Source: Gemmatimonadales bacterium (lineage in GTDB: Bacteria > Gemmatimonadota > Gemmatimonadetes > Gemmatimonadales > GWC2-71-9). Taken from it: a DNA stretch of 64,000 nucleotides. Below the pieces are notes generated by a model, which saw only the letters and a list, made by a program, of their open reading frames with translations, was not told where the DNA came from and ran no database searches. A program made the translations under genes and the position numbers. Shown one piece after another: positions 16,267-33,623 of the stretch. Numbering within the stretch: the first letter of the stretch is position 1; every line of letters begins with the position of its first letter. The stretch covers positions 1,216 through 65,215 of the forward strand of contig DATGDT010000257.1 in NCBI GenBank assembly GCA_035310725.1. The letters run 5' to 3'.

Positions 16267-16282
16267 TTATCTTCCCTCGCAC

Positions 16283-20090: not shown

Positions 20091-21016
20091 AGCGCCTCGG
20101 GGTCATCGGGACGATGGTGTGGGACACGATCCACGGGCGCGACCCCACGCAGCGCGCGGTCGAGGAGTGGGGGGGAATTGCCTACGCCCTGGCCGGGCTG
20201 GACGCGGCGCTCCCCGACGACTGGGCCATCGTGCCGCTCATCAAGGTGGGACGGGACCTGGCGCCGCGGGCGTCGGCCTTCCTGCGCGATGTGCGGCGCG
20301 CTGTCCCGGGGTCCCGGTTCATCGAAGTGCCGGAGCCCAACAACCGCGTCACCCTGCACTACGAGACGGCCGAGCGGCGTTGTGAGCAGCTCACCGGCGG
20401 CGTCCCTGGATGGACGTGGGCCGAGCTGGGTGGTCTGGTGCGCGATCTCGACGCACTGTACCTGAACTTCATCTCCGGCTGGGAGCTGGGGCTCGACACG
20501 GCGCAGCTGCTGCGCCGCGGCTTCGCCCGGCCGATCTACGCCGACCTGCACAGTCTCTTCCTCGGACGCTTGCCGGACGGCACGCGCGTGCTGCAGGCGC
20601 TCCCTGGCGGCGACGACTGGTTCGGCTGCTTCGATACGGTGCAGGTGAACGAGGACGAGTTCGGTCAGCTCGGCCCCGACCCGCTCGCGGCCGCGGCCCA
20701 CGTGCTCGCGGCCGGGTGCCGCACCCTGATCGTGACACTCGGCGTGCGCGGGGTCGCCTACTTCGTCGCCACGCCGGGACAGCCGATTCGCAGCGCCCGG
20801 GTCGCGCTGGAGCCGGGCGACCGGACCCCGGTGGCCGGCGGCGATCCGACCGGCTGCGGCGACGTCTTCGGCGCGGTGGCGTGCGCACACCTGCTGCAGG
20901 GCGCCTCGCTCGACGCGGCGATCCGCGCGGGAAGTCATATGGCAGCCCGGAACGTGACCCATCGCGGCGCGACCGGGCTGCGCGATCATCTGCTCGGCCG
21001 ATTGGCTTCCGTATGA
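20087..21016 (+). CDS. PfkB-family carbohydrate kinase
   Basis: ORF 20075-21016. The start is either GTG 20075 or GTG 20087; the latter forms a GTGA overlap with the ROK stop. C-terminal PfkB motif GDPTGCGDVFGAVACAHLL. Confidence 0.8.
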   Translation: MKRLGVIGTMVWDTIHGRDPTQRAVEEWGGIAYALAGLDAALPDDWAIVPLIKVGRDLAPRASAFLRDVRRAVPGSRFIEVPEPNNRVTLHYETAERRCEQLTGGVPGWTWAELGGLVRDLDALYLNFISGWELGLDTAQLLRRGFARPIYADLHSLFLGRLPDGTRVLQALPGGDDWFGCFDTVQVNEDEFGQLGPDPLAAAAHVLAAGCRTLIVTLGVRGVAYFVATPGQPIRSARVALEPGDRTPVAGGDPTGCGDVFGAVACAHLLQGASLDAAIRAGSHMAARNVTHRGATGLRDHLLGRLASV

Positions 21017-21918
21017 CGAAGCTGGTGGACGTCCCGGCGCAGTTCGACGACCGGACGTTCGATCAATTCGCTGCGGCCTACAGCCGCGCCGCGGCCGAGG
21101 GCGGGCGCATGCTGTTCGACGCGCACGCGACCGAGTGGGCGTCTCCCTACGGACTCGTCGGCCTGCTGGCGGCCGGCCAGGCGGCGCAGGCATCGGGCGG
21201 CGAGCGGCCGCTGCTGACCGCCCCCACCGCTCCGGACGTGCTGAGCTACTGGGGGCGTGCCGGATTCTTCCGCGATGCGCGCGAGTTGTTCGAGATCCAC
21301 GGGAAAGTGCCCCGCGGACAGTCGGCCGCCGACTCGGACGTGCTCCTCCCGGTGACGGCCGTGCGCGCCGCCGAGGACGTTCATGAAGTGGTCGGGCACA
21401 TCCAGCAGCGCGCCACCGCGATTCTCTCGAGCGAGCTCGGCATCGATCCGAAGGCGACCATGGGATTCGCTATGGCGCTTTCGGAGGCGTGTCAGAATAT
21501 TGTAGAGCACGCCGGTACGGGCGGCTGGGTGGCGGTGCAGAGTTACCACTGGCGGCGCCGTCTGGCTCGCCGCGTGGTGGTCATCGCCGTGGCCGACGCG
21601 GGCGTGGGGTTCCGTGCCTCACTCGAAGCGGCGCACGGGCGCCGCTTCGGCGACCGTTGGAGCGACGCCGCGGCGCTGGAGGCGGCGCTGATCCAGGGGG
21701 TGAGTCGGTTCCGGGACCCCGGCCGCGGGCAGGGACTGAAGGGGATCCGGAATTACGTCTCGCGGTGGGACGGCAAGATCGCCATCCGCAGCGGCACCGC
21801 GCGCATCGCGATCGTCCCGTCCTGGGACGACGACGTGCCGCTCGCCGAGGGGTTGCCGCCGTTCCCCGGCTCCCAGGTGCTTCTCATCATCCCGGAGCAG
21901 AGAGCCCGACACACGTGA
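21013..21918 (+). CDS. GHKL/HATPase_c-type ATP-binding protein (RsbW/SpoIIAB-like kinase fold) with an unknown ~110-aa N-terminal domain
   Basis: Real part of ORF 20410-21918. ATG 21013 forms an ATGA overlap with the pfkB stop. ATPase region: ALSEACQNIVEHAG...VIAVADAGVGF...GRGQGLKGIRNY...GKIAIRSGTARI. Confidence 0.7.
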   Translation: MTKLVDVPAQFDDRTFDQFAAAYSRAAAEGGRMLFDAHATEWASPYGLVGLLAAGQAAQASGGERPLLTAPTAPDVLSYWGRAGFFRDARELFEIHGKVPRGQSAADSDVLLPVTAVRAAEDVHEVVGHIQQRATAILSSELGIDPKATMGFAMALSEACQNIVEHAGTGGWVAVQSYHWRRRLARRVVVIAVADAGVGFRASLEAAHGRRFGDRWSDAAALEAALIQGVSRFRDPGRGQGLKGIRNYVSRWDGKIAIRSGTARIAIVPSWDDDVPLAEGLPPFPGSQVLLIIPEQRARHT

Positions 21919-22352
21919 TCCAGTCCATCGATGTTTCCGCCGTCCTGCGCCTCGCGGTGCGCGCCACGTACGCGGACCTCGTCACCCGGGCCACGGGCCG
22001 CGCGGTCCGGGAGCACATCGAGCAGGCGTACGCCGCCGATGTCGGGTTCGTGGCCCGGATGGACTTCACCGGCGTCCGCTGCATCGACTATTCCTGCGCC
22101 GACGAGATCGTGGCCAAGCTGCTACGGGAGCGGATTCACGTGCTGGTGCTGCGCGGCTGCTCGGACGCGCACCTGGAAGCGCTCGGGCCCGTCCTCGAAG
22201 GACACGGCCTGGCGGCGCTACTCGAGCGGGCCGATGGGACGCTCGACGGCCTGGGCCGACCGGAATCCACCGAGGCCCTGCTGGACGAGCTGGTCGCCCG
22301 CCGGCTGGCCGCGCGGACAGCCGGGGGCGCGGTCGCGCTGGTCGCCGCGTGA
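21915..22352 (+). CDS. DUF4325 / STAS-like domain protein
   Basis: Part of ORF 21489-22352. GTG 21915 forms a GTGA overlap with the upstream stop. TRATGRAVREHIEQ...VARMDFTGVRCIDYSCADEIVAKLL resembles the DUF4325 pattern (lDF.gV..is.SFadE). Confidence 0.6.
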   Translation: MIQSIDVSAVLRLAVRATYADLVTRATGRAVREHIEQAYAADVGFVARMDFTGVRCIDYSCADEIVAKLLRERIHVLVLRGCSDAHLEALGPVLEGHGLAALLERADGTLDGLGRPESTEALLDELVARRLAARTAGGAVALVAA

Positions 22353-23506
22353 CGCGCCGTCGGCTCGGCCTCTCCACTCGCGCCATCCACGGCGAGCCGG
22401 AGCCGCGACCCGATTGGACGCCGATCTCCCAACCGATTTACCAGAGCAGCACGTTCACCAATCCCGTCGGCTCGTCCGCCGAAGTCCTCTACACCCGATA
22501 CGGCAATAACCCCAACCAGGTGCAGATCGGGCGCCGCTTGGCCCGCCTGGAGGGCGCCGAGGCGGCGCTGTTCGTGGCGAGCGGGATGGGAGCCACCGCC
22601 CTCGCCCATCTCGCCGTACTGCGGCCGGGGGATCACCTGATCTCCAGCGAGTGGATCTACGGGGGCGTCCACAAGCTGTTCACGGAGGAATTCGGACGCT
22701 TCGGGATCGAGGTGACCTTCGTGGACCCGCTGCGCTCGCGCGCCTGGAAGGAAGCGCTGCGCAAGAACACGCGGGCGATGTTCGTGGAGACACCGACAAA
22801 CCCGCTGCTGCGCGTCATCGACCTCGAGCCGATCGCCACACTGGCGAAGGCCGAGGGGCTGGCCCTCCTCGTGGACTCCACCTTCGCCTCCCCGATCGCG
22901 TTCCGGCCGCTGGAGCACGGGGCCGACATCGTGATCCACAGCGCGACGAAGTACCTGAACGGCCACACCGACGTGATCGCCGGCGCCGTGGCGGGCACCG
23001 AGTCCGTCGTCGAGGAAGTCCGGCGGCTGATGCAGCTGTGGGGCCAGGCGATCGATCCGCACGCCGCCTGGCTCATCGAGCGCGGGATGCGAACGCTCGC
23101 CATCCGCGTGGCGCGGCACTCCGCGACGGGCCTCGCGGTGGCGGAGTGGTTCAGCCGCCAGCCGCAGGTCGCCGTGGTGCACTACCCCGGGCTGTCCTCG
23201 CACCGTGATCACAAGACGGCCAAACGGGTACTCGAAGGATATGGCGGGATGCTGGGCCTCGAGCTCAAGGGCGGCGCGCGGGCTGCCGAGCGGTTCCTGC
23301 GGGCCCTCACGATCGCCGCGCACGCGCCGTCGCTGGGCGGCACGGAGACGCTGGTTTCCGAGCCGCGGCTCACGTCTCACAAGGGACTCACGGCCGACGA
23401 ACGCGCCCGGGCTGGCATTCCGGACGGGTTCCTGAGATTTTCCCTCGGACTCGAGGATGCCGACGACCTCATCGCGGATTTCGCCCAGGCGCTGGCACAG
23501 CTCTAG
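22349..23506 (+). CDS. Cys/Met-metabolism PLP enzyme (cystathionine gamma-synthase/beta-lyase family)
   Basis: ORF 385 aa. PLP-lysine motif VIHSATKYLNGHTDVIAG and AHAPSLGGTETLV. Confidence 0.9.
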   Translation: MTRRRLGLSTRAIHGEPEPRPDWTPISQPIYQSSTFTNPVGSSAEVLYTRYGNNPNQVQIGRRLARLEGAEAALFVASGMGATALAHLAVLRPGDHLISSEWIYGGVHKLFTEEFGRFGIEVTFVDPLRSRAWKEALRKNTRAMFVETPTNPLLRVIDLEPIATLAKAEGLALLVDSTFASPIAFRPLEHGADIVIHSATKYLNGHTDVIAGAVAGTESVVEEVRRLMQLWGQAIDPHAAWLIERGMRTLAIRVARHSATGLAVAEWFSRQPQVAVVHYPGLSSHRDHKTAKRVLEGYGGMLGLELKGGARAAERFLRALTIAAHAPSLGGTETLVSEPRLTSHKGLTADERARAGIPDGFLRFSLGLEDADDLIADFAQALAQL

Positions 23507-24202
23507 GTGATCAAGTTCACGAGCGTCTTCAAGACGTACGCGAAGGGTGGACTCGCCCTCAAAGACGTCTCCTTCCATATCGCGAAGGGCGAGTTCGCCT
23601 TCCTCACCGGTCACTCCGGCGCCGGCAAATCCACCGTTCTGAAGCTCACCTACGCCGACGAGCAACCCTCGAGCGGTGAGGTGCGCGTGTCCGGGTACGA
23701 CGTCACGAGCATCAGCGCGCGCGATGTGCCGCACCTGCGGCGCCGCCTGGGGATCGTATTTCAGGATTTCCGGCTGCTGGAGGACCGCACAGCCGAGGAA
23801 AACGTCGCGTTCGCCCTCGAGGTGACCGGAGCGCGACGCTCCGCGATACCCGCCCGCGTGATGCGCGTACTCACCCAGGTGGGCCTCGCCGCGAAGGCCG
23901 GGGCGTACCCCCGGGAGCTGTCCGGGGGGGAGCAGCAGCGCGTCGCGATCGCCCGCGCCCTCGTGAACGAGCCGCAGGTCCTCCTGGCGGACGAGCCCAC
24001 CGGCAATCTCGACGAGCGCGCCACGCGGGGCGTGTTCCAGCTGCTGCGCGACATCAATGCCAGCGGTACGGCGGTGGTCATGGCGACGCACGATCTGGAG
24101 CTGGTGCGCTCGGCCCCCTACCGGGTCATCGAGCTGCAGGACGGCGCCGTGGTCTACGACTCCGCCGTGGACGAGGCGGCGGCGGGAGGCGAACCCGCGT
24201 GA
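23507..24202 (+). CDS. ftsE: Cell-division ABC ATPase FtsE
   Basis: ORF 231 aa: [35 protein letters not shown]. Followed by ftsX. Confidence 0.92.
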
Positions 24203-25056
24203 CCCTGACGGTGCGCGAGGCCCTGCTCGCCTTTCGGCGCGCGCCGCTCCTGTCGGCGCTCTCGGTCACCACGATCGCGTTCTCGCTGTTCGTGCTCGGG
24301 CTGTTCGGGCTCGTCGCCGTGAACCTCCGCCAGGCGCTGCGCGGGGTGGCGGAGCGGGTGGAGATCGTCGCGTACGTCCTTCCCGGCACGCAGATCGAGA
24401 CGGTGACGCTGGCCGAGCAGGACATCGAGGCGTTTCCCGAAGTGCTGTCTGCCGACTACGTGCCCGAGGATAGCGCGCTGGCGCGCGCCCGCCGCGAGCT
24501 GGTGGAATTCCGCGACCTGTTGCGCGAGATGGAGCGCAATCCACTGCCCTCTTCCATCGAGGTCAAGCTCAAACCGGGCTACCAGGACGCGGCCCACGTC
24601 AATGCCGTCGCCGAGCGGCTGCGGAGCTTCAGCTTCGTGGACGACGTGCGCTACGGTCGCGATTGGGTGGAGAAGCTGGATCGGCTGCGCGGGCTCGCCG
24701 CCGCCGTCGGCGTGGTGGTCGGCGCGGCCTTCGCCGTCGTCGCCGTGATCATCATCGGCACCACGATCCGGATGGCCGTGCTGCAGCGCAGCCGGGAGAT
24801 CGCGATCATGCGGCTCGTGGGCGCGACCGACGGGTTCATTCGCCGCCCGTTCCTGCTCCAGGGCGCCCTCAAGGGGCTGCTCGGGGGGCTGGTCGCCGTC
24901 GGCTTGTCCTACGTCGCCTACGTGTTCATCAACCGGTTCTTGATCGCTTCTTCCTTCTTCACGGCGCTACAGGCGCTGGCCGTCGTGGTGTTCGGGACGG
25001 TCATCGGGCTGATGGGGAGTCTCCTCAGCGTCGGGCGACATTTGAGACGAGTATGA
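24199..25056 (+). CDS. ftsX: Cell-division permease-like protein FtsX
   Basis: ORF 285 aa. GTGA overlap with ftsE, four TM segments and an FtsX extracellular-domain pattern. Confidence 0.9.
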   Translation: MTLTVREALLAFRRAPLLSALSVTTIAFSLFVLGLFGLVAVNLRQALRGVAERVEIVAYVLPGTQIETVTLAEQDIEAFPEVLSADYVPEDSALARARRELVEFRDLLREMERNPLPSSIEVKLKPGYQDAAHVNAVAERLRSFSFVDDVRYGRDWVEKLDRLRGLAAAVGVVVGAAFAVVAVIIIGTTIRMAVLQRSREIAIMRLVGATDGFIRRPFLLQGALKGLLGGLVAVGLSYVAYVFINRFLIASSFFTALQALAVVVFGTVIGLMGSLLSVGRHLRRV

Positions 25057-26279
25057 ACCGGGGACGGGGGACGAGGGACGAGGGACGGGCCTGGATCATC
25101 GCGGCCATCGCGATAGTCCTCGTCACGCTTCCCTCGTCCCCCATCCCTCTCTTCGCCCAGCGCCCGACCCTCGAGCAGCAGATGCGCGACAATCAGCAGC
25201 GCCTGGAGGGCATCCGCCGAGAGCGGACCCAGGCGCAGCAGGATCTGGAGCGGCTGCGCGCCCAGGTCCACAGCCTCGCCGACGAGCTGACCAACCTCGA
25301 GCATCAAAAAGAGACCACGAACCGCATCGTGAACGAGCTGGACCGGCAGATCCTCCAGCTGGGCGACGCGATCGACCGCATCACGGTGGACCTGGTGCTG
25401 GCCCAGGACGCGCTGGACGAGAAGCGCGCTGTGGCGGAGCGGCGGCTCGTCGACATCTACAAGCGCGGCCCGTTGTACGCCTACCAGGTGCTGTTCGCGG
25501 CCGAGAGTTTCGGCGACCTCCTGTCGCGGTACAAGTACCTCTACCTGATCAGCCGGCAGGACCGCCAGCTCGCCAACGAGATGAACCGGCTGCGGGATCG
25601 CATCGCACGGGAGCGGCGCGGTCTGGTGGAAGCGCGCGACGCGCTGGAGCGGCGCCGCACCGAGCGGTCCGAAGAGCTGCAGCATTTCGTCGATCTCGCC
25701 TCGCAGCGGCAACGCCGGCTGCGCGAGACCCGCCGTGACGTGGAGCGGGTCCAGGAGCGGCTCACCGCCACCGACGCCGAGGAGCGGCGGGTCGCCAACG
25801 CCATCGCCACGCTCGAGCGGGCGCGCCGCGAGGCCGAGGCCCGGGGCGCCGTGCCGACGACCGGCGCGATCACGAGCGGGAGTCTGGGCTCGCTCGACTG
25901 GCCGGTGACCGGCCGCGTGGTCTACGACTTTGGCCCCGCCGCGGGGCCCGACAACACGCGCATCACCTGGCATGGCATCGGTATCGCCGCGGACGAGGGC
26001 ACGGCCGTGAAGGCGGTCGCGCCCGGGACGGTCGCCCTGGTGGGGCCCCTCGGCACTTACCTCACGACGGTGATCGTGGATCACGGCGGCGGCTTCTACA
26101 CGATCTACGCCTCGCTCAACGACGCGGCGGTCTCCAAGGGCGACCGCGTGGTCCGCGGACAGCTGCTCGGTCACGTCGGCGGCGGCACGACCGAGCAGGG
26201 CCCGCACCTGCACTTCGAGATCCGGGGCCCGGGGCAGATTGCGCTCGATCCGCTGAATTGGCTGAAACCGAAACCTTAA
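25053..26279 (+). CDS. EnvC-like murein hydrolase activator (coiled coil + M23/LytM domain)
   Basis: Real part of ORF 24663-26279. ATG 25053 forms an ATGA overlap with ftsX. It has a signal-anchor WIIAAIAIVLVTL, a long coiled coil, and a C-terminal M23 region (GIGIAADEGTAVKAVAPGTV...VIVDHGGGFYTIYASL...GPHLHFEIR). Confidence 0.85.
   Translation: MNRGRGTRDEGRAWIIAAIAIVLVTLPSSPIPLFAQRPTLEQQMRDNQQRLEGIRRERTQAQQDLERLRAQVHSLADELTNLEHQKETTNRIVNELDRQILQLGDAIDRITVDLVLAQDALDEKRAVAERRLVDIYKRGPLYAYQVLFAAESFGDLLSRYKYLYLISRQDRQLANEMNRLRDRIARERRGLVEARDALERRRTERSEELQHFVDLASQRQRRLRETRRDVERVQERLTATDAEERRVANAIATLERARREAEARGAVPTTGAITSGSLGSLDWPVTGRVVYDFGPAAGPDNTRITWHGIGIAADEGTAVKAVAPGTVALVGPLGTYLTTVIVDHGGGFYTIYASLNDAAVSKGDRVVRGQLLGHVGGGTTEQGPHLHFEIRGPGQIALDPLNWLKPKP
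25060..25144. repeat. Heptamer array (GGGGACG)x2(AGGGACG)x2 with a degenerate inverted partner, inside the envC 5' end
   Basis: Direct units span 25060-25087. acgggggacgaggg (25064-25077) is 13/14 complementary to ccctcgtcccccat (25131-25144). An inner palindrome atcgcg/cgcgat lies at 25098-25114. Confidence 0.85.
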
Positions 26280-27224
26280 ATGCGTCGAGCGAAGGCGTCG
26301 AGCGAAGGCGTCGAGCAGCGGCGTCGAGCGAGAACGTATTCGCTCGACGGTTCTGCTCGACGATTTCGCTCGACGTTTGTGCTCGACGCCTTTCTGTTGT
26401 CGTGCCTCGCCTGTGCCGCCCCGACGAACCGCCTGGAAGTGGCCGGCACCGTCGAGATCCGTGACATCGGCATCGCTCCACTCGCCGCCGGCCGGGTCGT
26501 ACGCCTGCTGAAGGACGAAGGCGATTCGGTACGACGCGGGGACACCATCGCGGTGCTCGAGCAGCCCGGCCTCCCGGCGCTCATCGGCCAGCGGCAGGCC
26601 CAGGCCCAGGCGGCACAGCGGCGCACGGCGGAGGTCCGTGCGGCGGTCGCCGACAGCACGCGGGCGGCGAACGATCTCGCTCGCGCGGGCTCCCTGCGCG
26701 AGCAGGGCATCATGTCGGCGCAACAGTACGACGCGCTGGTGACCGCCGCCGCGGCGGCCACGGCCCGGCTCCAGGCGGTGCACGCGGCCGCGAGCGAGTC
26801 GCGCGCCGCCGCCGCGGGACTCGCGGCCACCGAGGCGATCCGCGACGAGCTCGTGCTGCTCGCTCCGGCGGACGGCGTCATCCTCACGCGCTATCTCGAG
26901 GCGGGCGAGGCCGCGAACGTCGGCGTGCCGGTCGTGTCGCTCGGCGTCGTGGCACAACCCTGGATCCGCGCGTACGTCGGTGAGCCGTACATCGCGCGGG
27001 TGCACCTTGGCCAGACGGTGACGATTCGCGCCGACGGTCTGGCGACGCCCGTCAGCGGACGCATCGTCGACATCGCGACGCGCGCCGAGTTCACGCCGCG
27101 CGCCGCCCTCACCGACCGCGAGCGCGCCGATCTCGTCTTCGCCATCAAGGTGGGATTCGACGATCCGGCCGGGCGTCTCAAGGCCGGCCTGCCCGTGACG
27201 CTCGAGCTGCCGCTCACGCCGTGA
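26280..27224 (+). CDS. HlyD/YbhG-family membrane-fusion (periplasmic adaptor) protein of the ABC-2 exporter
   Basis: ORF 314 aa. Resembles E. coli YbhG (biotinyl-lipoyl-like GRVVRLLKDEGDSVRRGDTIAVL; C-terminal RAEFTPRAALTDRERADLVFAIKV). Start is uncertain: ATG 26280 or in-frame GTG 26379 (LDAFLLSCLACAAP lipobox-like). Confidence 0.8.
   Translation: MRRAKASSEGVEQRRRARTYSLDGSARRFRSTFVLDAFLLSCLACAAPTNRLEVAGTVEIRDIGIAPLAAGRVVRLLKDEGDSVRRGDTIAVLEQPGLPALIGQRQAQAQAAQRRTAEVRAAVADSTRAANDLARAGSLREQGIMSAQQYDALVTAAAAATARLQAVHAAASESRAAAAGLAATEAIRDELVLLAPADGVILTRYLEAGEAANVGVPVVSLGVVAQPWIRAYVGEPYIARVHLGQTVTIRADGLATPVSGRIVDIATRAEFTPRAALTDRERADLVFAIKVGFDDPAGRLKAGLPVTLELPLTP
26282..26390. repeat. 109-nt symmetric array: four 13-nt-period direct units (core CGTCGAGC) followed by four inverted units (core GCTCGACG)
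   Basis: Direct cores start at 26283, 26296, 26309 and 26322. Inverted cores start at 26342, 26355, 26368 and 26381. All four core pairs share one symmetry axis (position sums 52671). The first two units are identical (gcgtcgagcgaag). Confidence 0.95.
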
Positions 27225-27955
27225 GCGACATCGCAGTCGACATCCAGCAGTTGACGCGCCGATTCGGCGCCCTCACCGCCGTCTCCGGACTGACGCTCCA
27301 GATCCCCCGCGGGCAGGTCTTCGGGCTGCTCGGGCCCAACGGCTCGGGCAAGACCACGACGATCCGTATGCTGTGCGGCCTGCTCGATCCCTCCGAAGGC
27401 ACCGCCTCGGTCGCGGGGATCGACATCCGCACGGCGCCGGAGCGCGTGAAGATGCAGATCGGCTACATGTCCCAGCGGTTCGGGTTGTACGAGGATCTCA
27501 CCGTCGCCGAGAACCTCGAATTCTACGGCGGGATCTACGGCCTCCGCGGCCGGGCGCGCGCCGAGCGCACGGCGGAGGTGGTGCGCTTTCTGGGCATCGG
27601 CGGACGACTCGAGCAGCTGGCGGGGCAGCTGTCGGGCGGCTGGAAGCAGCGCCTGGCATTGGGCTGCGCCCTGCTGCACCAGCCTCCCGTGTTGTTCCTC
27701 GACGAGCCGACGGCCGGTGTGGACCCGGCCGCGCGACGCAACTTCTGGCAGGCCATCCATGATCTCGCGCACGGGGGCACCACCGTCCTGGTGACGACGC
27801 ACTACATGGACGAGGCCGAACGCTGTGACCGGCTGGCGATGATGAGCCTGGGGCACCTGATCGCCCTGGGCACGCCGGCAGAGGTCGCGGCGCAGGTCGG
27901 CGGCCGGACCCTCGAAGACGCCTTCATCATCCTCCAGGAGCGCGACGAGCGATGA
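27221..27955 (+). CDS. ABC transporter ATP-binding protein (ABC-2/YbhF-like)
   Basis: ORF 244 aa: GPNGSGKTT, LSGGWKQRLALGCAL, LFLDEPTAGVD. GTGA overlap with the hlyD-family gene. Confidence 0.92.
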   Translation: MSDIAVDIQQLTRRFGALTAVSGLTLQIPRGQVFGLLGPNGSGKTTTIRMLCGLLDPSEGTASVAGIDIRTAPERVKMQIGYMSQRFGLYEDLTVAENLEFYGGIYGLRGRARAERTAEVVRFLGIGGRLEQLAGQLSGGWKQRLALGCALLHQPPVLFLDEPTAGVDPAARRNFWQAIHDLAHGGTTVLVTTHYMDEAERCDRLAMMSLGHLIALGTPAEVAAQVGGRTLEDAFIILQERDER

Positions 27956-29064
27956 TGTCCCGCTTCTGGCCGATGTTCCGCAAGGAATTCATCCAGATGA
28001 AGCGCGACCGGCTCACGCTGGGCATCATGATCGGCATCCCGGTGGTGCAGCTGCTGATGTTCGGGTACGCCATCCAGACCGACGTGCGGCATATCCCGAC
28101 GGTGGTCCTGGACCGCTCCCGCACGCCGGAGAGCCGCGATCTGATCGCGGCGTTCGAGAACACCGGGAGCTTCCGCATCGTGGACCACGTGGACGGCCAG
28201 CCGGCGCTCGACGCTTCGATCGAACGGGGGCGGGCGCAGGCCGGCATCATCGTCCCCCCGGAGTACGCCCGCGATCTCGGCCGCGGCCGCACCGCGACGG
28301 TGCAGGTCGTGATCGACGCCTCCGACCCCCTGTCGTCCCAGTCCGCGCTCGCGGCGGCGGCCGGCGTCGGCCAGGTGCGCAATCTGGCCGCGCTCGTCGC
28401 CGGCGCCGGTCGCTTGAGTGTCCCCATCGACGTGCGCGTGCGGCCGCGCTACAACCCCGGGCTGCGCAGCCCGAACTACATCGTGCCCGGCCTGGTGGGG
28501 GTGATCCTCACGCTCACCCTCGTGCTCATCACGGCGATGGCGATCGTCCGGGAACGCGAGCGCGGTACCCTGGAACAGCTCATCGTCACGCCGATCACCA
28601 AGACCGAGCTGATGCTGGGGAAGATCGCCCCCTATATCGGAGTGGGGATCGTGCAGATGACCGCGGTCCTCACGCTCGGCCGCTTCGTGTTCGATGTGCC
28701 GCTCTCGGGCAGCCTGCTGCTGCTCTACGGCGTGTCGCTGATCTTCGTGATCGCCAGTCTCTCCTTCGGCCTGTTCATCTCCACCATGGTCAGGAACCAG
28801 CAGCAGGCGATGCAGGTCAGCTTTTTCTTCGTGATGCCGAACATCCTGCTCTCCGGCTTCATGTTTCCACGCGCGGCGATGCCGGCGTTATTCCAGTGGT
28901 TCAGCCTCCTGCTGCCGCTCACGCACTATCTCCAGGTGCTGCGCGGCATTCTGCTCAAGGGCGTGGGCCTGAACGCGATCTGGCCGCAGGTGGTGATCCT
29001 GTGCGGCTTCGCCGTAGCCCTGATCTCGCTGGCCGTGCGGAGATTCCACAAGACGCTGGACTGA
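27952..29064 (+). CDS. ABC-2 type transporter permease (YbhR/YbhS-like)
   Basis: ORF 370 aa. Has an N-terminal cytoplasmic segment, one TM helix, a large periplasmic loop and five C-terminal TM helices. ATGA overlap with the ATPase gene. Confidence 0.9.
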   Translation: MMSRFWPMFRKEFIQMKRDRLTLGIMIGIPVVQLLMFGYAIQTDVRHIPTVVLDRSRTPESRDLIAAFENTGSFRIVDHVDGQPALDASIERGRAQAGIIVPPEYARDLGRGRTATVQVVIDASDPLSSQSALAAAAGVGQVRNLAALVAGAGRLSVPIDVRVRPRYNPGLRSPNYIVPGLVGVILTLTLVLITAMAIVRERERGTLEQLIVTPITKTELMLGKIAPYIGVGIVQMTAVLTLGRFVFDVPLSGSLLLLYGVSLIFVIASLSFGLFISTMVRNQQQAMQVSFFFVMPNILLSGFMFPRAAMPALFQWFSLLLPLTHYLQVLRGILLKGVGLNAIWPQVVILCGFAVALISLAVRRFHKTLD

Positions 29065-29071
29065 AGAGGCA

Positions 29072-29156
29072 GGGAGTGGGGAGTGGGGAGTGGGGAGTGG
29101 TACTCGGCGGAGCGAAGACGGAGTTCCGCCACCGTCGGGTACCACTCCCCACTCCC
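29072..29156. repeat. Heptamer-array palindrome: (GGGAGTG)x4 GTAC, 35-nt spacer, GTAC C(ACTCCCC)(ACTCCC)
   Basis: Direct units span 29072-29099. An 18-bp perfect stem pairs gggagtggggagtggtac (29086-29103) with gtaccactccccactccc (29139-29156). An inner ggcgga/tccgcc pairing sits in the spacer. Confidence 0.95.
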
Positions 29157-29175
29157 GGTCCCCACGCGCAAGTTT

Positions 29176-29844
29176 ATGGCGATGCCCCCTGCCCCGGAAA
29201 CCCGCTCCGCGCGCCGCCGCATGGTGCGCCGGCAACTCGCGGCGCGCGGCGTTCGCGACGCCCGCGTGCTGGCGACGATGGCCCGCATTCCGCGCGAGTG
29301 GTTCCTGGCCGACGCCCTCGACCCGCAGGCCTATCGCGACGGCCCGTTGCCCATCGGCAACGGACAGACGATCTCGCAGCCCTACATCGTGGCGGTGATG
29401 ACTGCCGCGCTCGGCGCCCAGCGACGGCACCGCGTGCTCGAGATCGGCACGGGATCGGGATACCAGACTGCGGTGCTCGCGCGTCTGGTGGGACACGTCT
29501 ACACGGTCGAGCGCTTGCCGGACCTGCTGGTCGAAGCGGAGGAACGGCTCCGCCGGCTCGGAATCGGCAACGTGACCACGCGACTCGGCGATGGAGCCGC
29601 GGGGTGGCCCGAGGCGGCACCGTTCGACGGCATTCTCGTCACCGCCGCGATCCCGCGTGTGCCTCCACCATTGCTCGAGCAGGTGACACCAGGCGGGCGC
29701 ATCGTGGCGCCGATCGGTGACCAGGCGGAGCAGGAGCTGGTCATTCTGGAGCGACGGGCAGCCGGGTGGGCCGAGCGCAGCGCGGGCGGAGTCCGTTTCG
29801 TGCCGCTGATCTCGCGGCTCGCGTTTCCCCGGGAGTCGCCCTGA
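29176..29844 (+). CDS. pcm: Protein-L-isoaspartate O-methyltransferase
   Basis: Real part of ORF 29083-29844, starting at ATG 29176. Motifs: GQTISQPYIVAVM, VLEIGTGSGYQTAVLA, FDGILVTAA. Confidence 0.9.
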   Translation: MAMPPAPETRSARRRMVRRQLAARGVRDARVLATMARIPREWFLADALDPQAYRDGPLPIGNGQTISQPYIVAVMTAALGAQRRHRVLEIGTGSGYQTAVLARLVGHVYTVERLPDLLVEAEERLRRLGIGNVTTRLGDGAAGWPEAAPFDGILVTAAIPRVPPPLLEQVTPGGRIVAPIGDQAEQELVILERRAAGWAERSAGGVRFVPLISRLAFPRESP

Positions 29845-30716
29845 TTCTCCACGACGACCTGCTGGGCGCGCACGTGTCGAGTCTGGGCGGCGTGGCGCAC
29901 GCGCCCGAACGCGGACGAACCGTCGGCGCGAACGCGATCCAGGTGTTCACCAAGACGCCCAATCAGTGGCGCGAACCGGCGATCGACGCGGCCCAGGCCG
30001 ACGGCTTCCGGTCCGCATTGACGCGGTCGAGAATCCGCGCCGTGGTGGCCCACGACAGCTACCTGATCAACCTGGCCTCGCCCGACGCGGCGTTGCGGGC
30101 GCGCAGTGAAGCGAGCTTCACCCGCGAGCTGGAGCGCTGCCGGATGCTCGGCATCCCCTGGGTGGTGAGTCACCCCGGGAACTTCATGGACGAACGCGCC
30201 TCCGGGCTCGAACGCAACGCGCAGAGCTATGCCGCCTGCCTGACCCGCGTGGACGGGCCGGGGGTGCTGATCGAGGGGACCGCGGGGGCCGGGACGGCAT
30301 TGGGCGCGACCTTCGAAGAGCTGGCGGCCCTGCGCGAGGCGCTGCCGCCCGCGCTGCGGCCGCGCGTGGGATTCTGCCTCGACACCGCCCATCTGCACGC
30401 TGCCGGGTATAACGTCGCCGCGGATATCGCGGCGGTGTGGGAGGAGTTCGACCGGGTCGTAGGAATGGCGCACCTGCGGTGCCTGCACCTCAACGATTCG
30501 CGGGTGGCGCGGGGATCGCGCATCGACCGGCACGCCTGGATCGGCGAGGGTGCGATCGGCCCCGAGGCATTCCGGCACATCATGCGGGACCAGAAACTCG
30601 AGGGAGTGATTAAGATTATCGAAACGCCGAAGGCGGACGACCCGGTGCGTCACGACCGGCGCATGTTGCGGCGGCTGCGCGCGTACGCGCGTGGCACCCC
30701 CTCCACGGCGTGTTGA
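29766..30716 (+). CDS. nfo: Endonuclease IV (AP endonuclease, xylose-isomerase-like TIM barrel)
   Basis: ORF 316 aa: LGAHVSS..GG, AHDSYLINLASP, SHPGN, CLDTAHLHAAGY, HLNDS. The only canonical start before the conserved GAHVS strand is GTG 29766, which overlaps pcm by 79 nt. A CTG/ATT start near 29841 would fit homologs better, so the 5' end is uncertain. Confidence 0.85.
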   Translation: MGRAQRGRSPFRAADLAARVSPGVALILHDDLLGAHVSSLGGVAHAPERGRTVGANAIQVFTKTPNQWREPAIDAAQADGFRSALTRSRIRAVVAHDSYLINLASPDAALRARSEASFTRELERCRMLGIPWVVSHPGNFMDERASGLERNAQSYAACLTRVDGPGVLIEGTAGAGTALGATFEELAALREALPPALRPRVGFCLDTAHLHAAGYNVAADIAAVWEEFDRVVGMAHLRCLHLNDSRVARGSRIDRHAWIGEGAIGPEAFRHIMRDQKLEGVIKIIETPKADDPVRHDRRMLRRLRAYARGTPSTAC

Positions 30717-30724
30717 GGACCATC

Positions 30725-31084
30725 ATGCAACGCTGGTCGACCAGAGCGCAGCGCGGAGTGGCACGCGGCATCGCAACCCTGCTGTTCGTTCTGCAGGCGG
30801 GGGCGGGCGGAGCCGTGGCGCTGGCGCATGCCAACGACTCTCTCGGCGGGCCGGCCACCCTCGAGTCGCATCACAGCGCACAGTGCGTGACAGTCCACGA
30901 TGCCGCACGCTGCGCGCAGTGCCAGTATCAGGCGACCCGCGTGCTGCCCGCGGCGCGGCGTCGCGTCCCGCTCGCGTCGGGCGCCACCCACACCCAACCC
31001 ACCTGCGAGCTCGCGCGCCTCGCGCCGCCACGGCCGCCCCTGCGCGCCGCCCCACCTCGCGCCCCTCCCGAGTCTCTCGCCTGA
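30725..31084 (+). CDS. Small membrane-anchored His/Cys-containing hypothetical protein upstream of the RND efflux genes
   Basis: ORF 30710-31084 with possible starts GTG 30710, TTG 30713 or ATG 30725. N-terminal TM IATLLFVLQAGAGGAVALAHA, then ESHHSAQCVTVHDAARCAQCQY. The position is analogous to small periplasmic or regulatory proteins of czc/cus operons. No family is recognised with certainty. Confidence 0.45.
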   Translation: MQRWSTRAQRGVARGIATLLFVLQAGAGGAVALAHANDSLGGPATLESHHSAQCVTVHDAARCAQCQYQATRVLPAARRRVPLASGATHTQPTCELARLAPPRPPLRAAPPRAPPESLA

Positions 31085-31207
31085 GTTCGGTCAAGCACCG
31101 CGCGTCGACGGGTACGATGCGCGCGTAGAGTCCACGGGTGCTCGCGGAACACCTTCGTTCGCCGGCCGCGGTCCCCTGCTGGACCACCCGTTCGGAGGCA
31201 TTGGGAG

Positions 31208-32512
31208 ATGTCGCACGTGCGATATGTGGTTCTGGTACTGGCGGGGACAGCCGCCGGGATCGTTCCGGGGAAAGCGCGGGGCCAGGAAGTCCCGCGCACC
31301 TCACCCCCGGCTCTGGTGCTCACGCGCCGAGATGCCGTCGATTCTGCGCTGGCTCGCAACCCGCAGCTGCGCGTCGCGCGGGAGCAGGTCGCGCAGGCAC
31401 GGGCGCGCGCCGTCCAAACCGGCGCGTTTCCCGATCCGACGCTCACCGGCGATCTGACCGGACAGACAGGCGCAACGCGGTTCCGCTCGAACACGGGGAG
31501 CGACGTCGGCATCGGCCTGCTGCTCCCGTTCCCGACCAAGTTCCTGTTGCGCCGGCAGGTGGGCGGCGCCGACGTGGCGGCGGTCCAATTCGACTACGAA
31601 CAACTGCGCCAGGAAACGGCCTCGCTGACGGCGCAGAGTTACGACGCGCTGATCGTGCTGCTGCGCCACCGGGCCGACCTGATCGACGGAGACTCCCTGG
31701 CGCGGGAGTTCCTGCACAAGACGCAGGTCCGCTTCGAGGCGGGCTCCGTGCCGCGACTGGACGTGCTGAAGGCCCAGGTGGATCTCGCCCAGGCGGAAAA
31801 CGCCCTGCTCGCCAATCAGCGCGACGTCGCCAACGCCAGAGCGGCGCTCAACCGACTGCTGGGGCGTCCGCTGGGCGCCGGAATCGAGGCCGCCGACACG
31901 CTCGCGGTTCCGCCTGACCTGCCGCCACTCGATTCGCTGGTGAGCGTCGCGCTGACCCGCCGCCCCGAGCTCCTGGGGTTGGCGCGGCAACGCGCGGGCG
32001 CCGGCGCCGCCACGGCCCTGGCCCAGCAGTACTGGCTGCCCGATCTGGACCTCTCGGTCGAGAAGAACCTGAGCCAGGGCACGCCCGGCACCTACACGAC
32101 GGGCATCGGCATCACGGTGCCCCTCTTCTTCTGGAACCACCAACGCGGTGAAGTGGCGGAGTCGAAGCATCGCGAGCGTGAGCTCGACGCCGCCTACACC
32201 GATCTCGAAGCGGAGGTCGAAGAAGACGTGCGCACCACGTATGCCGCCGCAACCACCGCATTGCAGCAGGCGGTCTATCTGCGCGACCATCTGCTCCCCG
32301 AGGCCCGGCGAGCCTACGAGATCGCCCTGACGAGCTACGGGCTCGGCGGCGCCTCGACCCTCGACGTGCTCGACGCCCGTCGGACCCTGCTCGACGCCGA
32401 AGGCCAGTACGCCGATGCCCTCGGCGCCGCCAACGATGCGCGCGCCGACCTGGAGCGCGCGATCGGCACTCCCCTGGACGATGATGCCGCCGGAGCCCGC
32501 CATGACCATTGA
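31208..32512 (+). CDS. TolC-family outer-membrane efflux protein (CzcC-like)
   Basis: ORF 434 aa with a signal peptide and two OEP repeats, each with a coiled-coil pattern. Precedes the MFP and RND genes. Confidence 0.85.
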   Translation: MSHVRYVVLVLAGTAAGIVPGKARGQEVPRTSPPALVLTRRDAVDSALARNPQLRVAREQVAQARARAVQTGAFPDPTLTGDLTGQTGATRFRSNTGSDVGIGLLLPFPTKFLLRRQVGGADVAAVQFDYEQLRQETASLTAQSYDALIVLLRHRADLIDGDSLAREFLHKTQVRFEAGSVPRLDVLKAQVDLAQAENALLANQRDVANARAALNRLLGRPLGAGIEAADTLAVPPDLPPLDSLVSVALTRRPELLGLARQRAGAGAATALAQQYWLPDLDLSVEKNLSQGTPGTYTTGIGITVPLFFWNHQRGEVAESKHRERELDAAYTDLEAEVEEDVRTTYAAATTALQQAVYLRDHLLPEARRAYEIALTSYGLGGASTLDVLDARRTLLDAEGQYADALGAANDARADLERAIGTPLDDDAAGARHDH

Positions 32513-33623
32513 CCGCCGCGCCGTGATCGTCGCCGTGCTGTGTGCCGCCTGCGGGCACGGCGGCGCGAAAGTCGAGGCCGACCAGGGTGCCGCCTTCGGG
32601 CTCACCGCCTCCCAGCGAGCCCGGATCCATGTCGAGGTCGTGAGCGCTGCAGACTTCCGCCCGACCGTCGAGGTCAGCGGTACGGTGGCCTTCGACGGCG
32701 ACCACAGTACGCAGGTGCTCGCCCCCATCTCCGGGCCGGTGAGCCGCATCCTTGTGGAGCCCGGCGCGCGGGTCGCCGCAGGGCAGCCGCTCGCCTACGT
32801 GTCTTCGCCCGACTTCGCCGCGGCGCTCGCCGCCTACCGCAAGGCGGAGGCGGCCGCCGGCAACGCGGTGCGCGTGGCCGCCCGCGACTCGGCCCTGTAC
32901 GCCAACGACGCCTTGGCACGCCAGGAGCTCGAGCAGGCGCAAACGGAGGCGGCGGCGGCGGTCGCGGACCGCGACGCAGCGGTCGATCAGCTCCGAGCCA
33001 TCGGCGTCGACGCCACGACCATCGACGCGCTTCGCCAGGGGCAGTCGATTCAGATCCTGCAGGGCGTGATTCGCGCGCCGCTCCCCGGCACCGTGGTCGA
33101 GCGGCTCATCACGCCGGGCCAGCTGCTCACGGCCAGCCAGACGCCGTGCTTCACGGTGGCCCGGCTCGGGACGATGTGGGTGATGGGAAACGTGTTCGAG
33201 CAGGATCTTCCCGACGTGGCGGTGGGCGACGCGGCTGACGTCCAGCCCACCGGTGGCGAGCGCGTCTTCCACGGACGCGTCGACTACGTCGGGGCGCTGG
33301 TCGATCCCGAGACGCGCGCCACGGCGGTGCGCGTGGTGACCGACAACCCGGGCGCGGGATTGAAGAAGGATATGTACGTCCGCGTGGCCATTCACTCGCG
33401 TCACGCGCGGCGGGGGCTGCTCGTCCCGACGTCGTCGGTGCTGCGCGACGATCAGAATCTGCCGTTCGTCTTCCTGGTCAAGCCCGACAGCTCTTTCGAG
33501 CGACGCACCGTGCGCCTGGGCTCGCGCGTGGGAGACCGGTTCGAGGTCGCGTCCGGCCTCGCCGCCGGGGACCACGTCGTCACCGAGGGCGCGCTGTTCC
33601 TGCAGTTCGCGGAGAATCAGTGA
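32502..33623 (+). CDS. RND efflux membrane-fusion protein (CzcB/CusB-like)
   Basis: Real part of ORF 32415-33623, starting at ATG 32502 (MTIDRRAVIVAVLCAACG lipobox). HlyD_D23-like barrel regions are present. Confidence 0.85.
   Translation: MTIDRRAVIVAVLCAACGHGGAKVEADQGAAFGLTASQRARIHVEVVSAADFRPTVEVSGTVAFDGDHSTQVLAPISGPVSRILVEPGARVAAGQPLAYVSSPDFAAALAAYRKAEAAAGNAVRVAARDSALYANDALARQELEQAQTEAAAAVADRDAAVDQLRAIGVDATTIDALRQGQSIQILQGVIRAPLPGTVVERLITPGQLLTASQTPCFTVARLGTMWVMGNVFEQDLPDVAVGDAADVQPTGGERVFHGRVDYVGALVDPETRATAVRVVTDNPGAGLKKDMYVRVAIHSRHARRGLLVPTSSVLRDDQNLPFVFLVKPDSSFERRTVRLGSRVGDRFEVASGLAAGDHVVTEGALFLQFAENQ

Follow-up and report, generated by a model that had tools for sequence, protein, structure and literature searches.

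A palindromic tandem array at the envC-adaptor junction of a Gemmatimonadales bacterium is one copy of a dispersed repeat family

Between the gene of an envC-like peptidase and that of a HlyD/YbhG-like periplasmic adaptor, the 64-kb stretch of Gemmatimonadales DNA analysed here (called the window) carries four direct copies of an 8-nt core followed by four inverted ones. The array begins immediately behind the envC stop codon and lies entirely inside the annotated reading frame of the adaptor, which raises the question of whether it is a binding site for a protein, an RNA structure, a piece of coding sequence or a repeat of no use to the host. An earlier note, made from the sequence alone, had likened the layout to iteron, centromere or operator arrays more than to a simple terminator. 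The array belongs to a dispersed palindromic repeat that is specific to Gemmatimonadales and has copies behind stop codons at many loci.

Anatomy of the array

The array consists of four CGTCGAGC units in the 5' arm and four GCTCGACG cores in the 3' arm, which are arranged around the apex GAGAACGTATTC (Table 1). Its 13-nt period, the positions of all eight cores and the identity of the first two 13-mers of the 5' arm (CGTCGAGCGAAGG) were as described in the earlier note, base for base. The start positions of the core pairs add up to 52671 in every case and thus define the single axis of symmetry between 26335 and 26336 that had been proposed. The placement just past the envC stop was likewise reproduced, and the end of the array falls within codon 37 of the adaptor ORF. 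Tandem repeat analysis (TRF) returned a period of 13 in both arms with 3.8 and 4.0 copies, and in an independent repeat search the arms were 63 nt long and 78% complementary.

The two-core pattern was found seven times in the window, with six matches at the array and one site with two mismatches at 62582; this number was reached in 0 of 100 shuffles (shuffle mean 0.72). The core CGTCGAGC by itself occurs 37 times in the window versus 12.6 expected, eight of the occurrences being located within the array. The roughly two-fold excess outside the array was tentatively attributed to codon usage, and a reading of CGTCGAGC as a DNA uptake sequence was set aside.

The sole internal palindrome of the 13-nt unit (CGTCGAGC+RRRRR) is the 4-nt TCGA, and pairing is possible only across opposite arms. 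The potential to form a long hairpin, which the earlier note had deduced from the symmetry, was borne out by the predicted RNA fold of -92.8 kcal/mol (shuffles, -58.1 +/- 3.9 kcal/mol; z = -8.85). This is the lowest energy among the approximately 6,400 windows of 120 nt in the 64-kb stretch, despite a GC content of merely 0.60. For the copy in the window, the sense RNA was predicted to be more stable than the antisense RNA (-85.8 versus -78.2 kcal/mol). Rfam searches of the whole window at gathering thresholds found only a tRNA; a permissive scan of 26200-26460 returned only sub-threshold hairpins resembling miRNA precursors, which were taken as chance matches.

Table 1. Genes, candidate start codons and repeat features around the array (positions in the window).
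Feature	Position	Strand	Remarks
envC-like M23 peptidase gene	25053..26279	+	Pfam Peptidase_M23 6e-25 and CC_PcsB
envC TAA stop	26277-26279	+	3 nt upstream of first core
ATG adjoining envC stop (TAAATG)	26280..26282	+	sole in-frame start 5' of GTG 26379
HlyD/YbhG-like periplasmic adaptor (membrane-fusion) lipoprotein gene	26280..27224	+	Pfam HlyD_D23 8e-13, HlyD_3
5' arm	26283..26329	+	four CGTCGAGC units, cores starting at 26283, 26296, 26309, 26322
5'-arm spacers	26283..26329	+	5 nt, purine-rich: GAAGG, GAAGG, AGCGG
Apex GAGAACGTATTC	26330..26341	+	truncated core pair (CGT/A..) about axis 26335/26336
RNA-fold loop	26332-26339	+	predicted fold
3' arm	26342..26388	+	four GCTCGACG cores at 26342, 26355, 26368, 26381
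3'-arm spacers	26342..26388	+	pyrimidine-/T-rich: GTTCT, ATTTC, TTTGT
Coding stretch ARRFRSTFVLDAFLLSCLAC	26355..26414	+	RR n-region, hydrophobic h-region, lipobox cysteines
Alternative in-frame GTG	26379..26381	+	in last unit, buried in predicted stem
ABC ATPase	27221-27955		downstream of adaptor gene
ABC-2 permease	27952-29064		downstream of ABC ATPase

A dispersed family behind stop codons

A genome scan yielded 16 two-armed matches, all of which (16/16) were located in Gemmatimonadales or Gemmatimonadota MAGs and at different junctions; the maximum per MAG was three loci, counted by stringent matches in SMAG_U16330. The 74 matches in other phyla were one-armed VNTRs with identical spacers, and a scan of viral contigs gave 0 matches. 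The element was also present on 70 further soil contigs; its distinct copies number 69, and it occurs at more than 30 different, unrelated gene junctions. No Gemmatimonadetes repeat family turned up in literature searches, and the array is apparently one copy of a repeat family of soil Gemmatimonadales that was undescribed so far.

Family members share the architecture n x [CGTCRAGC + 5 purine-rich nt], apex, n x [5 pyrimidine-rich nt + GCTYGACG]. Each arm repeats its unit 2-10 times in tandem, and the unit numbers of the two arms are equal in 38/69 copies and one unit apart in 23/69 (together 61/69). The consensus of the 5' spacers is A-rich and purine-rich, T accounts for 0.39-0.76 per position of the 3' spacers, and the apices ..ACGTA.. 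and ..CCGTACGG.. are recurrent.

In 25 of 46 cases the first core is located 2-5 nt past a stop codon. Several of the longer distances hold one additional degenerate unit. The flanking genes, the orientation of which was taken from the flank-based frame call, are co-directional in 19 cases, convergent in 5 and divergent in none (0/24), a bias with P of about 0.001-0.005 in counts that include orthologous copies and are hence not fully independent statistically. Between convergent genes the element fills the gap between both stops to within 2-7 nt on each side, and a next gene that starts past the element does so 11-28 nt after the last core. Copies are also found at the ends of operons and within them, namely at nuoA-nuoB and between a kdsD-like and an LptC-like gene, both in essential operons, and at ftsX-envC. 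Hairpins made of quite different 7-, 8-, 13- and 15-nt units follow the same rule (approximately 0-7 nt past the stop), and a few of them overlap the stop codon. Three hairpins with other units are present in the window. Heptamer hairpins with four G3-4 runs are located in it at 25061 and 29072. At the ftsX-envC and envC-adaptor junctions, different lineages carry different unit families.

According to the earlier note, close relatives that lack the array and retain an unchanged adaptor N-terminus would argue against any coding or regulatory role. The comparison of orthologous junctions gave a mixed picture: a more distant orthologous operon (L165) has no array and an ordinary signal peptide, whereas in nearer relatives this position is occupied either by the same array or by a hairpin of a different 13-mer.

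Between orthologous copies, the cores differ by 3.9%, the flanking coding DNA by 10.9% and the spacers by 39%; the cores are thus conserved better than the neighbouring coding sequence, and unit numbers are maintained between species. Spacer complementarity within an element (2.17/5) was close to that of random left/right pairs (2.31/5), and the G/A polymorphism at core position 5 was independent of its partner (Fisher p = 0.68). Compensatory evolution was rejected for the spacers and for the polymorphic core position, and in view of this lack of pairwise covariation the hairpin stems from inverted consensus units rather than from demonstrable compensatory change. Part of the spacer divergence has a different origin: at one pair of orthologous loci (L094 versus L149) the interior of the hairpin is inverted between the arms, so fast point substitution alone was rejected as the cause of their difference. 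Identical neighbouring units point to unit duplication as a further change at the DNA level.

The notion that a constant orientation follows from the purine-rich arm coming first after the gene was discarded, since a palindrome reads identically on both strands. Orientation was judged instead by the counts of G.U and A.C pairs and by strand-specific fold energies. The sense RNA was more stable than the antisense RNA in 26/36 copies (binomial p = 0.011, Wilcoxon p = 0.017), with 160 G.U pairs versus 108 A.C in the sense orientation; this modest bias could be explained by strand-biased mutation.

Reading through the array

The adaptor has 871 homologues, of which those named are from Gemmatimonadales, and the gene order ftsE-ftsX-envC-adaptor-ABC-ABC2 is kept in L161, L163 and L165. 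For the orthologous adaptor, gene callers gave lengths of 241-328 aa, and these widely differing N-termini are called because of the tandem-repeat hairpins behind the stop. The alternative GTG noticed earlier in the last unit is indeed present in the sequence, and the equivalent start was chosen by JGI in P0004; initiation there would give MLDAFLLSC.., which is devoid of a charged n-region. Orthologues at the same place begin with TAG+ATG or with an overlapping GTGA and have a frame open across the array. The adaptor probably starts at the ATG at 26280, which would be reached by translational coupling.

Conceptual translation from this ATG bears out the claim that the right arm encodes part of a lipoprotein signal: FVLDAFLLSC is encoded from 26376, and the part of the stretch ARRFRSTFVLDAFLLSCLAC up to 26388 is derived from the last three 3'-arm units. 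Reading from the stop-adjacent start meets an open frame in 6/6 array-bearing orthologous junctions (window, L005, L075, L166, L167 and L168), including L168, in which most of the 5' arm is lost and the coding 3' arm is retained. In the whole family, 14 copies sit within the downstream ORF and span approximately five gene families; the products concerned are the adaptor, EnvC, two unknown membrane proteins and the LptC-like protein. Of these 14 read-through copies, 13 use a single frame for the 3' arm, giving ARR-x-C[L/S]T-x-LLD, which would supply the charged and the hydrophobic parts of an export signal. Where the gene begins downstream of the element, frame use is 6:3:6, and by composition the three frames are about equally open. 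Among relatives the adaptor N-terminus varies along with the element, which suggests a coding role of the element, and the array probably encodes part of the adaptor's export signal.

Known systems and competing explanations

BOX elements of Streptococcus pneumoniae are modular intergenic repeats with a variable number of tandem modules that form a stable stem-loop in mRNA. Their modules measure 45-59 nt, comprise separate parts A, B and C and have no fixed relation to stop codons; they differ from the element described here in not being symmetric arrays of a 13-nt unit.

The element has a general likeness to REP/BIME repeats, which are short, dispersed and hairpin-forming, lie mostly 3' of genes between co-directional or convergent ORFs as do the copies of this family, are often paired head-to-head into larger hairpins and have some intragenic copies. 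Many REPs lie within 15 nt of a stop codon, where they are described as stalling ribosomes (Liang et al., 2015, as cited in PMC12306157). The 13-nt unit starts with CGTC, and REP/BIME repeats include GTAG- and CGTC-tagged superfamilies (Di Nocera et al., 2013, PMC3733652), a resemblance that may be coincidental. A REP unit, however, is itself an imperfect palindrome, a stem-loop of 20-40 nt with an unpaired tag, whereas the 13-nt unit is not self-complementary, has its CGTC bases paired inside the 8-bp core helix and builds arms that are tandem arrays. No RAYT (IS200/IS605-type tyrosine transposase) or other transposase was noticed in the DNA covered, which comprised 64 kb of this genome and flanks of at most 14 kb.

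Such arms are known from the inverted heptamers of Xanthomonas (GGGAATC) and Nostoc (GGGGA[C/T]T) (PMC4692102; cyanobacterial STRR), which are likewise tandem with about four units per array, frequently occur as two convergent arrays able to form stem-loops and are enriched between aligned and depleted between divergent ORFs. The Xanthomonas arrays are located within 50 bp of stop codons (Rehm et al., 2015, PMC4692102) or overlap them. Our family shares the pairs of convergent arrays, the aligned ORFs and the nearness to the stop, and the two heptamer hairpins of the window look like direct counterparts of these arrays. The element under study differs in its 13-nt unit with a core that is not G-rich and has no G-runs, so that no G-quadruplex is possible, in its host phylum, in arms that are almost always paired and in a tighter distance to the stop (2-5 nt); no coding use has been reported for the heptamer arrays. 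Rickettsia palindromic elements (RPEs) are, in turn, palindromic repeats inserted in frame and translated as an extra peptide (Delihas, 2008, PMC2229807). RPEs are non-tandem, 100-150 nt long and insert at many protein positions, whereas insertion is confined here to the first codons past an overlapping stop/start and the translated 3' arm serves as a predicted signal or anchor segment. A MITE would have terminal inverted repeats, a flanking target-site duplication and a related autonomous IS; the element is an inverted repeat over its whole length, inspection of its stop-side flanks revealed no obvious direct duplication, and no parent IS was identified.

We consider it rather probable, judging from sequence comparisons, that the array is a REP-like intercistronic stem-loop element which would act at the RNA level and has in part been exapted for coding. 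Its copies at many loci retain the cores and turn over the spacers, and the element changes at the DNA level, as indicated by the inverted hairpin interior and by identical neighbouring units that suggest unit duplication. It would be co-transcribed with ftsE-ftsX-envC-adaptor-ABC, and the mRNA would fold as an interrupted helix of approximately 50 bp that may serve as a barrier to 3'-exonucleases, as a site of pausing or partial termination or as an RNase III-type processing site, and would let the envC and transporter segments vary independently in amount. Both candidate start codons of the adaptor would be hidden by the helix, so that most translation of the adaptor would come from ribosomes reinitiating after termination at the envC TAA. 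With envC and adaptor presumably coupled (TAAATG here, GTGA in relatives), the element comes to lie within the adaptor ORF, right at its 5' end. As the frame statistics suggest, ribosomes would read through the array and translate the 5' arm into a charged N-terminal tail and the 3' arm into RR and hydrophobic residues belonging to the lipoprotein signal peptide. As a counterpoint to a role of the RNA, the L165 operon works without any element.

The absence from L165 speaks for the strongest rival, which we regard as unlikely but worth serious attention, namely a selfish or neutral palindromic repeat that is tolerated past stops or in frame in N-terminal signal regions, has no RNA function for the host and spreads by slippage, fold-back/template switching, gene conversion or a putative transposase. 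Arms without covariation, hypervariable spacers, the inverted hairpin interior, the identical first two units of the window copy and the swapping of unit families at the same junction across lineages are all in line with it. Such a repeat would, however, hardly keep its cores better than the flanking coding DNA, its unit numbers steady between species and its two arms equal or one unit apart in nearly all copies. The better folding of the sense strand and the persistence of a hairpin at the same junctions when the unit family differs also speak against it, and the deletion bias of bacteria should remove useless inserts of 100 nt, not trim them to 2-5 nt of stops.

A modular bidirectional intrinsic terminator is improbable. 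With mirror-image A-rich spacers the array could act from either side, and because a U-rich spacer follows each 3' core, the polymerase would meet successive stem-plus-U-tract signals. The purine-rich 5' and T-rich 3' spacers are so arranged on both strands, the element spans the gap between convergent stops, it is missing between divergent genes, and given the T-rich spacers some copies would pass the terminator consensus (GC-rich stem, loop of 3-8 nt, at least 5 U in the 8 nt past the stem). The window copy has just 4 T in the 8 nt past its inner stem (tail GTTCTGCT) and was absent from the results of a consensus scan of 20000-35000. The copies in operons that need downstream expression, such as nuoA-nuoB, ftsX-envC and the kdsD-like/LptC-like pair, argue against strong termination, as do the fourteen copies within the downstream ORF.

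The reading favoured in the earlier note, taken here more broadly as a protein-binding array (operator, iteron, centromere or site of a nucleoid protein) in which CGTCGAGC is recognised at 13-bp spacing, is very unlikely. It would account for the high conservation of the 8-nt core with free spacers, for the strict period and, with units recognised independently, for the lack of covariation between the arms. An operator, iteron or centromere array, however, would be specific to one locus beside the gene it serves. The same architecture at dozens of unrelated junctions and its absence from divergent promoter regions leave this reading unsupported, and the array, whose neighbours are ftsEX-envC and the ABC transporter, has no linked rep, par or regulator gene. 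Moreover, hairpins of unrelated units at the same positions, even at the same junctions, argue against a sequence-specific binding protein. Library artefacts can create palindromes, but an assembly or sequencing artefact, e.g. a chimeric fold-back read, can be practically dismissed, as the junction carries this structure in independent MAGs and assemblies too (L075, L005, L166 and L167; P0001-P0003), where the flanking genes are intact and the substitutions are specific to the lineage.

The REP-like element with partial exaptation remains the reading we prefer, and it may be extended, in a speculative and rather doubtful manner, to an entire class of tandem-repeat palindromes that would renew themselves and have interchangeable 7-15-nt units. 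The terminating ribosome would position these palindromes or mediate their action, and they would recurrently donate export signals and regulate coupling. A purine-rich 5' arm and a pyrimidine-rich 3' arm translate as a charged segment followed by a hydrophobic one, and copies between coupled genes could for this reason donate signal peptides or membrane anchors.

Gemmatimonadota are abundant in soil, and almost no molecular genetics exists for them. The array should not be taken for an operator or centromere. The elements flag a systematic problem of annotation, and they are natural handles for studying the formation of transcript 3' ends and translational coupling in this phylum. If the conservation of the frame reflects real translation, a repeat has repeatedly been recruited into signal peptides and membrane anchors, for instance those of EnvC, the YbhG-like adaptor and the LptC-like protein, and this would be a concrete case of non-coding repeats yielding functional coding sequence.

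The array between envC and the adaptor gene

On re-reading of the sequence, the layout first described for the array held in full: four direct cores (CGTCGAGC) and four inverted cores (GCTCGACG), every core pair centred on a single axis at 26335/26336, 13-mers 1 and 2 identical, and the whole array spanned by an ORF whose ATG directly follows the envC TAA (26277-26279). TRF gave a period of 13, and a repeat search returned arms of 63 nt with 78% complementarity. The array is far from chance expectation: the observed number of two-core matches in the window was reached by 0 of 100 shuffles, and the RNA fold has an energy of -92.8 kcal/mol (z = -8.85). It is the most stable 120-nt window (-85.8 versus a mean of -48.8, sd 8.2, in about 6,400 overlapping windows) at a GC content of only 0.60. 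Since the genes from ftsE to the permease all abut or overlap on one strand, co-transcription of the ftsE-ftsX-envC-adaptor-ABC genes is a reasonable inference; a scan of 20000-35000 detected no sigma-70-like promoter site. The adaptor has 871 homologues, the named ones being from Gemmatimonadales, and the nearest genome locus, L075 in a Gemmatimonadales MAG, shares 99% EnvC identity (L numbers denote loci in other MAGs or soil contigs).

Coordinates of genes, hairpins and other repeats in the window and in other loci
Feature	Sequence	Position	Layout or context
ftsE	window	23507-24202	
ftsX	window	24199-25056	
M23/EnvC-like peptidase gene	window	25053-26279	
HlyD/YbhG-like adaptor gene	window	26280-27224	
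ABC ATPase gene, then ABC-2 permease gene	window		downstream of adaptor
Direct cores	window	starts 26283, 26296, 26309, 26322	5' arm of array
Inverted cores	window	starts 26342, 26355, 26368, 26381	3' arm of array
Heptamer hairpin	window	25061-25147	(GGGGACG/CGAGGGA) x4, then inverted CGTCCCY arm; 4 nt past ftsX TGA (ATGA overlap with envC start), over EnvC codons 3-32
Heptamer hairpin	window	29072-29156	(GGGAGTG) x4 vs (CCACTCC) x2; 7 nt past ABC-2 permease stop
Heptamer hairpin	window	16181-16270	(GCTATCG) x3 vs (CGATAGC) x4; ends 13 nt before lepA-like start (16283)
One-armed array	window	50400-50425	TCGGCTATCGGCTATCAGCCATCGGCAG
tRNA gene	window	50515-50587	
Inverted repeat	window	55034-55123	TTGTGGCAACTCG...GAGTTGCCATAA; 32-nt arms, 75% complementary, not tandem units
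Tandem repeat	window	12789-12869	33-nt unit, 2.5 copies, 83% matches, TRF score 120
Largest family copy seen	L116	639-846	10 units in 5' arm, 5 in 3' arm
Inverted hairpin interior, pair	L094; L149	3320-3431; 4556-4667	orthologous convergent-gene junction
Second-13-mer hairpins	L161	2985-3075; 1700-1870	CGTAKGGR + purines vs complement
Second-13-mer hairpins	L163	2995-3080; 1755-1870	CGTAKGGR + purines vs complement
GGGAGTG-unit hairpin	L146	712-796	

A dispersed family behind stop codons

A search for three cores at 13-nt spacing, run on one genome per species, matched 90 loci. In 74 of them, all from other phyla, the match was a plain one-armed VNTR with identical spacers; the 16 loci with two inverted arms all belong to Gemmatimonadales or Gemmatimonadota MAGs, and they sit at different gene junctions, not at one locus. 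Soil metagenome contigs added 70 matches to the hairpin-shaped pattern, non-identical family copies number 69 in total, and a single MAG, SMAG_U16330, holds three family loci (L005, L015, L087). Neither an Rfam family for the element nor literature describing such elements in Gemmatimonadota was found, and none of the scanned viral contigs carry it.

The 5' arm consists of n units of CGTCRAGC plus an A- and purine-rich 5 nt, the apex is built around a truncated core (..CGTA.. or ..CCGTACGG..), and the 3' arm consists of n units of a T- and pyrimidine-rich 5 nt plus GCTYGACG. Copies have an n of 2 to 10, and the arms are mostly equal (3+3 in 24 copies, 4+4 in 14). Because a palindrome is the same on either strand, the purine-first, pyrimidine-last order is true in both directions, and this spacer layout mirrors the A-tract, stem and U-tract of bidirectional terminators. 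The unequal L116 copy has seven identical spacers in a row (AAAGA), which points to a recent one-sided expansion of units.

A positional-GC frame call validated on known genes gave the orientation of the flanks: 19 copies have co-directional neighbours and 5 convergent ones, and no copy lies between divergent genes, an outcome with a probability of about 0.001-0.005 for a divergent share of 20-25% among junctions. In 25 of 46 cases 2-5 nt separate the abutting gene's stop codon from the first core, and several of the longer distances contain one extra degenerate unit. Convergent pairs have both stops near the element: four pairs have them 2-7 nt outside, and at L126 each falls 7 nt within it. 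Where the next gene begins after the element, as at nuoA|nuoB (L077, L097, L112, L121, L138), its start is 11-28 nt past the last core, leaving space for a ribosome-binding site.

The array is almost certainly a copy of this dispersed post-stop hairpin family. The earlier note had likened it to iteron, centromere or operator arrays more than to a simple terminator, a reading not borne out by a family that is dispersed over different junctions and keeps architecture and position constant while the unit varies. The same holds across orthologous operons. At envC|adaptor the CGTCRAGC 13-mer occurs in the window, L005, L075, L166 and L167, a second 13-mer in L161 and L163, and no element in the more distant L165, where envC and adaptor overlap as GTGA; at ftsX|envC the window and L165 carry heptamers, L161 and L163 the second 13-mer, and L123, L136, L145, L147 and L153 the CGTCRAGC family. 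That different families occupy the same junctions counts against a sequence-specific binding protein, and a structure-based role, or a structure-based origin, of the hairpins is favoured.

Hairpins with other units follow the same placement rule. A TRF-based survey of 649 kb for hairpins with tandem-repeat arms returned, for example, GGGAGTG/CCACTCC, GGGGACG, TGCGGAA, GGCGGTAA and a 15-mer; they begin about 0-7 nt past a stop codon, a few overlapping it, with 10 co-directional, 4 convergent and 0 divergent flanks. Three lie in the window. The one within envC has a G-quadruplex motif (four G3-5 runs) in its G-rich arm and a loop coding for the hydrophobic anchor AWIIAAIAIVLV. The one behind the permease is the second most stable 120-nt fold of the window (-79.8 kcal/mol) and, as its unit recurs at L146, also represents a dispersed family. 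The hairpin before the lepA-like gene is the exception to the post-stop rule: the strict criterion does not call its left flank as coding, a lenient call places a minus-strand gene there, and if the latter holds it is the sole such hairpin seen between divergent genes. A one-armed array near-identical to it lies about 90 nt before a tRNA gene. Two further repeats were observed in the window: the inverted repeat at 55034, past a gene end in a locally AT-richer stretch, and the 33-nt tandem repeat, which may encode an 11-residue protein repeat.

Fold, change at the DNA level and proposed mechanism

With each copy read in the direction of its abutting gene, the sense RNA folded better than the antisense RNA in 26 of 36 (binomial p = 0.011, Wilcoxon p = 0.017; mean difference 3.8 kcal/mol), with 160 G.U versus 108 A.C pairs. 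No pair-specific covariation was detected in the spacers (2.17 of 5 paired within elements versus 2.31 for random left/right spacers), nor any dependence of the G/A polymorphism at core position 5 on its partner (p = 0.68), so the hairpin results from a consensus unit being present in inverted copies. Orthologous copies, some pairs of which are duplicates, diverge by 3.9% in cores, 10.9% in flanking coding DNA, 24% in the loop and 39% in spacers. Part of this divergence is structural: the hairpin interior (loop and inner units) is inverted between L094 and L149, and identity goes up from 153 to 166 of 192 once it is flipped. The inversion points to flip-flop recombination between the arms, and recombination of the arms therefore takes place in the DNA.

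Family membership, the positional rule, core constraint, frame conservation and change at the DNA level are established, the last from the inverted interior and from duplicate neighbouring units. The element would be transcribed within the operon and fold into a roughly 50-bp interrupted helix, a REP-like intercistronic stem-loop acting as exonuclease barrier, pause or partial terminator, or RNase III-type site. This helix would hide both candidate adaptor start codons, in which case the adaptor would be made by ribosomes that end at the envC TAA, reinitiate at the adjacent ATG and then translate through the array. The first part of this mechanism has precedents: REPs located at most 15 nt from a stop codon are described as stalling ribosomes and reducing translation (Liang et al. 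2015, cited in PMC12306157), Xanthomonas inverted heptamer arrays are found between aligned ORFs at no more than 50 bp from stop codons (PMC4692102), and RPEs are known in-frame palindromic insertions (PMC3733652, PMC2229807). By analogy the element may work like REP/BIME elements or an inverted SSR array; however, the unit of REP/BIME is by definition itself a palindrome whereas the 13-nt unit is not, and the Xanthomonas and Nostoc heptamers can form a G-quadruplex whereas the 13-mer cannot. An RNA stem-loop with these specific regulatory roles is put forward tentatively; the combined explanation, a dispersed post-stop hairpin that is REP-like and partly coding, is moderately likely.

Probable translation of the 3' arm

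The only in-frame adaptor starts are ATG 26280 and GTG 26379, the latter giving MLDAFLLSC.. without a charged n-region. Comparison of orthologous envC|adaptor junctions, also suggested earlier, revealed that every array-bearing one retains a start codon at the stop of envC (TAG+ATG in L075 and L005, overlapping GTGA in L166, L167 and L168) and that the frame is open across the whole array in these five, also where gene callers picked an internal start; in L168 most of the 5' arm is gone and three 3' units remain as coding sequence. Part of the predicted lipoprotein signal is indeed encoded by the right arm, A26-R-R-F-R-S-T-F-V-L-D36 (26355-26388) preceding AFLLSCLAC and the lipobox cysteines, the second of which aligns with the conserved lipobox position of orthologues. 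The array is quite likely translated from ATG 26280. With the second 13-mer, the apical loop holds the adaptor ATG, the 5' arm has GGAG-like motifs just upstream of it, and the signal-peptide h-region is coded by the 3' arm (e.g. FSLRLLPLTPLPFVLALGC).

Fourteen family copies fall within the ORF of the gene downstream, and 13 of them have their last three 3' units in the frame that gives ARR / C[L/S]T / LLD[A/V]. The genes encode EnvC, the adaptor lipoprotein, two unknown membrane proteins and an LptC-like protein; the last was assigned by eye, not Pfam, and its gene overlaps a preceding kdsD-like gene by ATGA. Copies with the downstream gene starting after the element fall into frames 6:3:6, and the stop-free fractions of the three frames are about equal (0.45, 0.40, 0.56). 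One frame across unrelated genes without a DNA-level explanation implies, as judged from sequence, that the 3' arm is translated and under selection to supply an RR n-region and, after it, a hydrophobic stretch.

Among adaptor homologues P0001-P0120, the proteins as called are 241 to 328 aa long, with hypervariable N-termini ahead of a conserved L.V[AS]GTVEIR motif. Several short calls that were checked (P0059, P0077) come from gene callers choosing an internal start within or behind a hairpin element, and the calling of adaptor N-termini looks like an annotation problem that is systematic in this clade. The unusual part of the element is the recruitment of its 3' arm into export signals in a constant frame.
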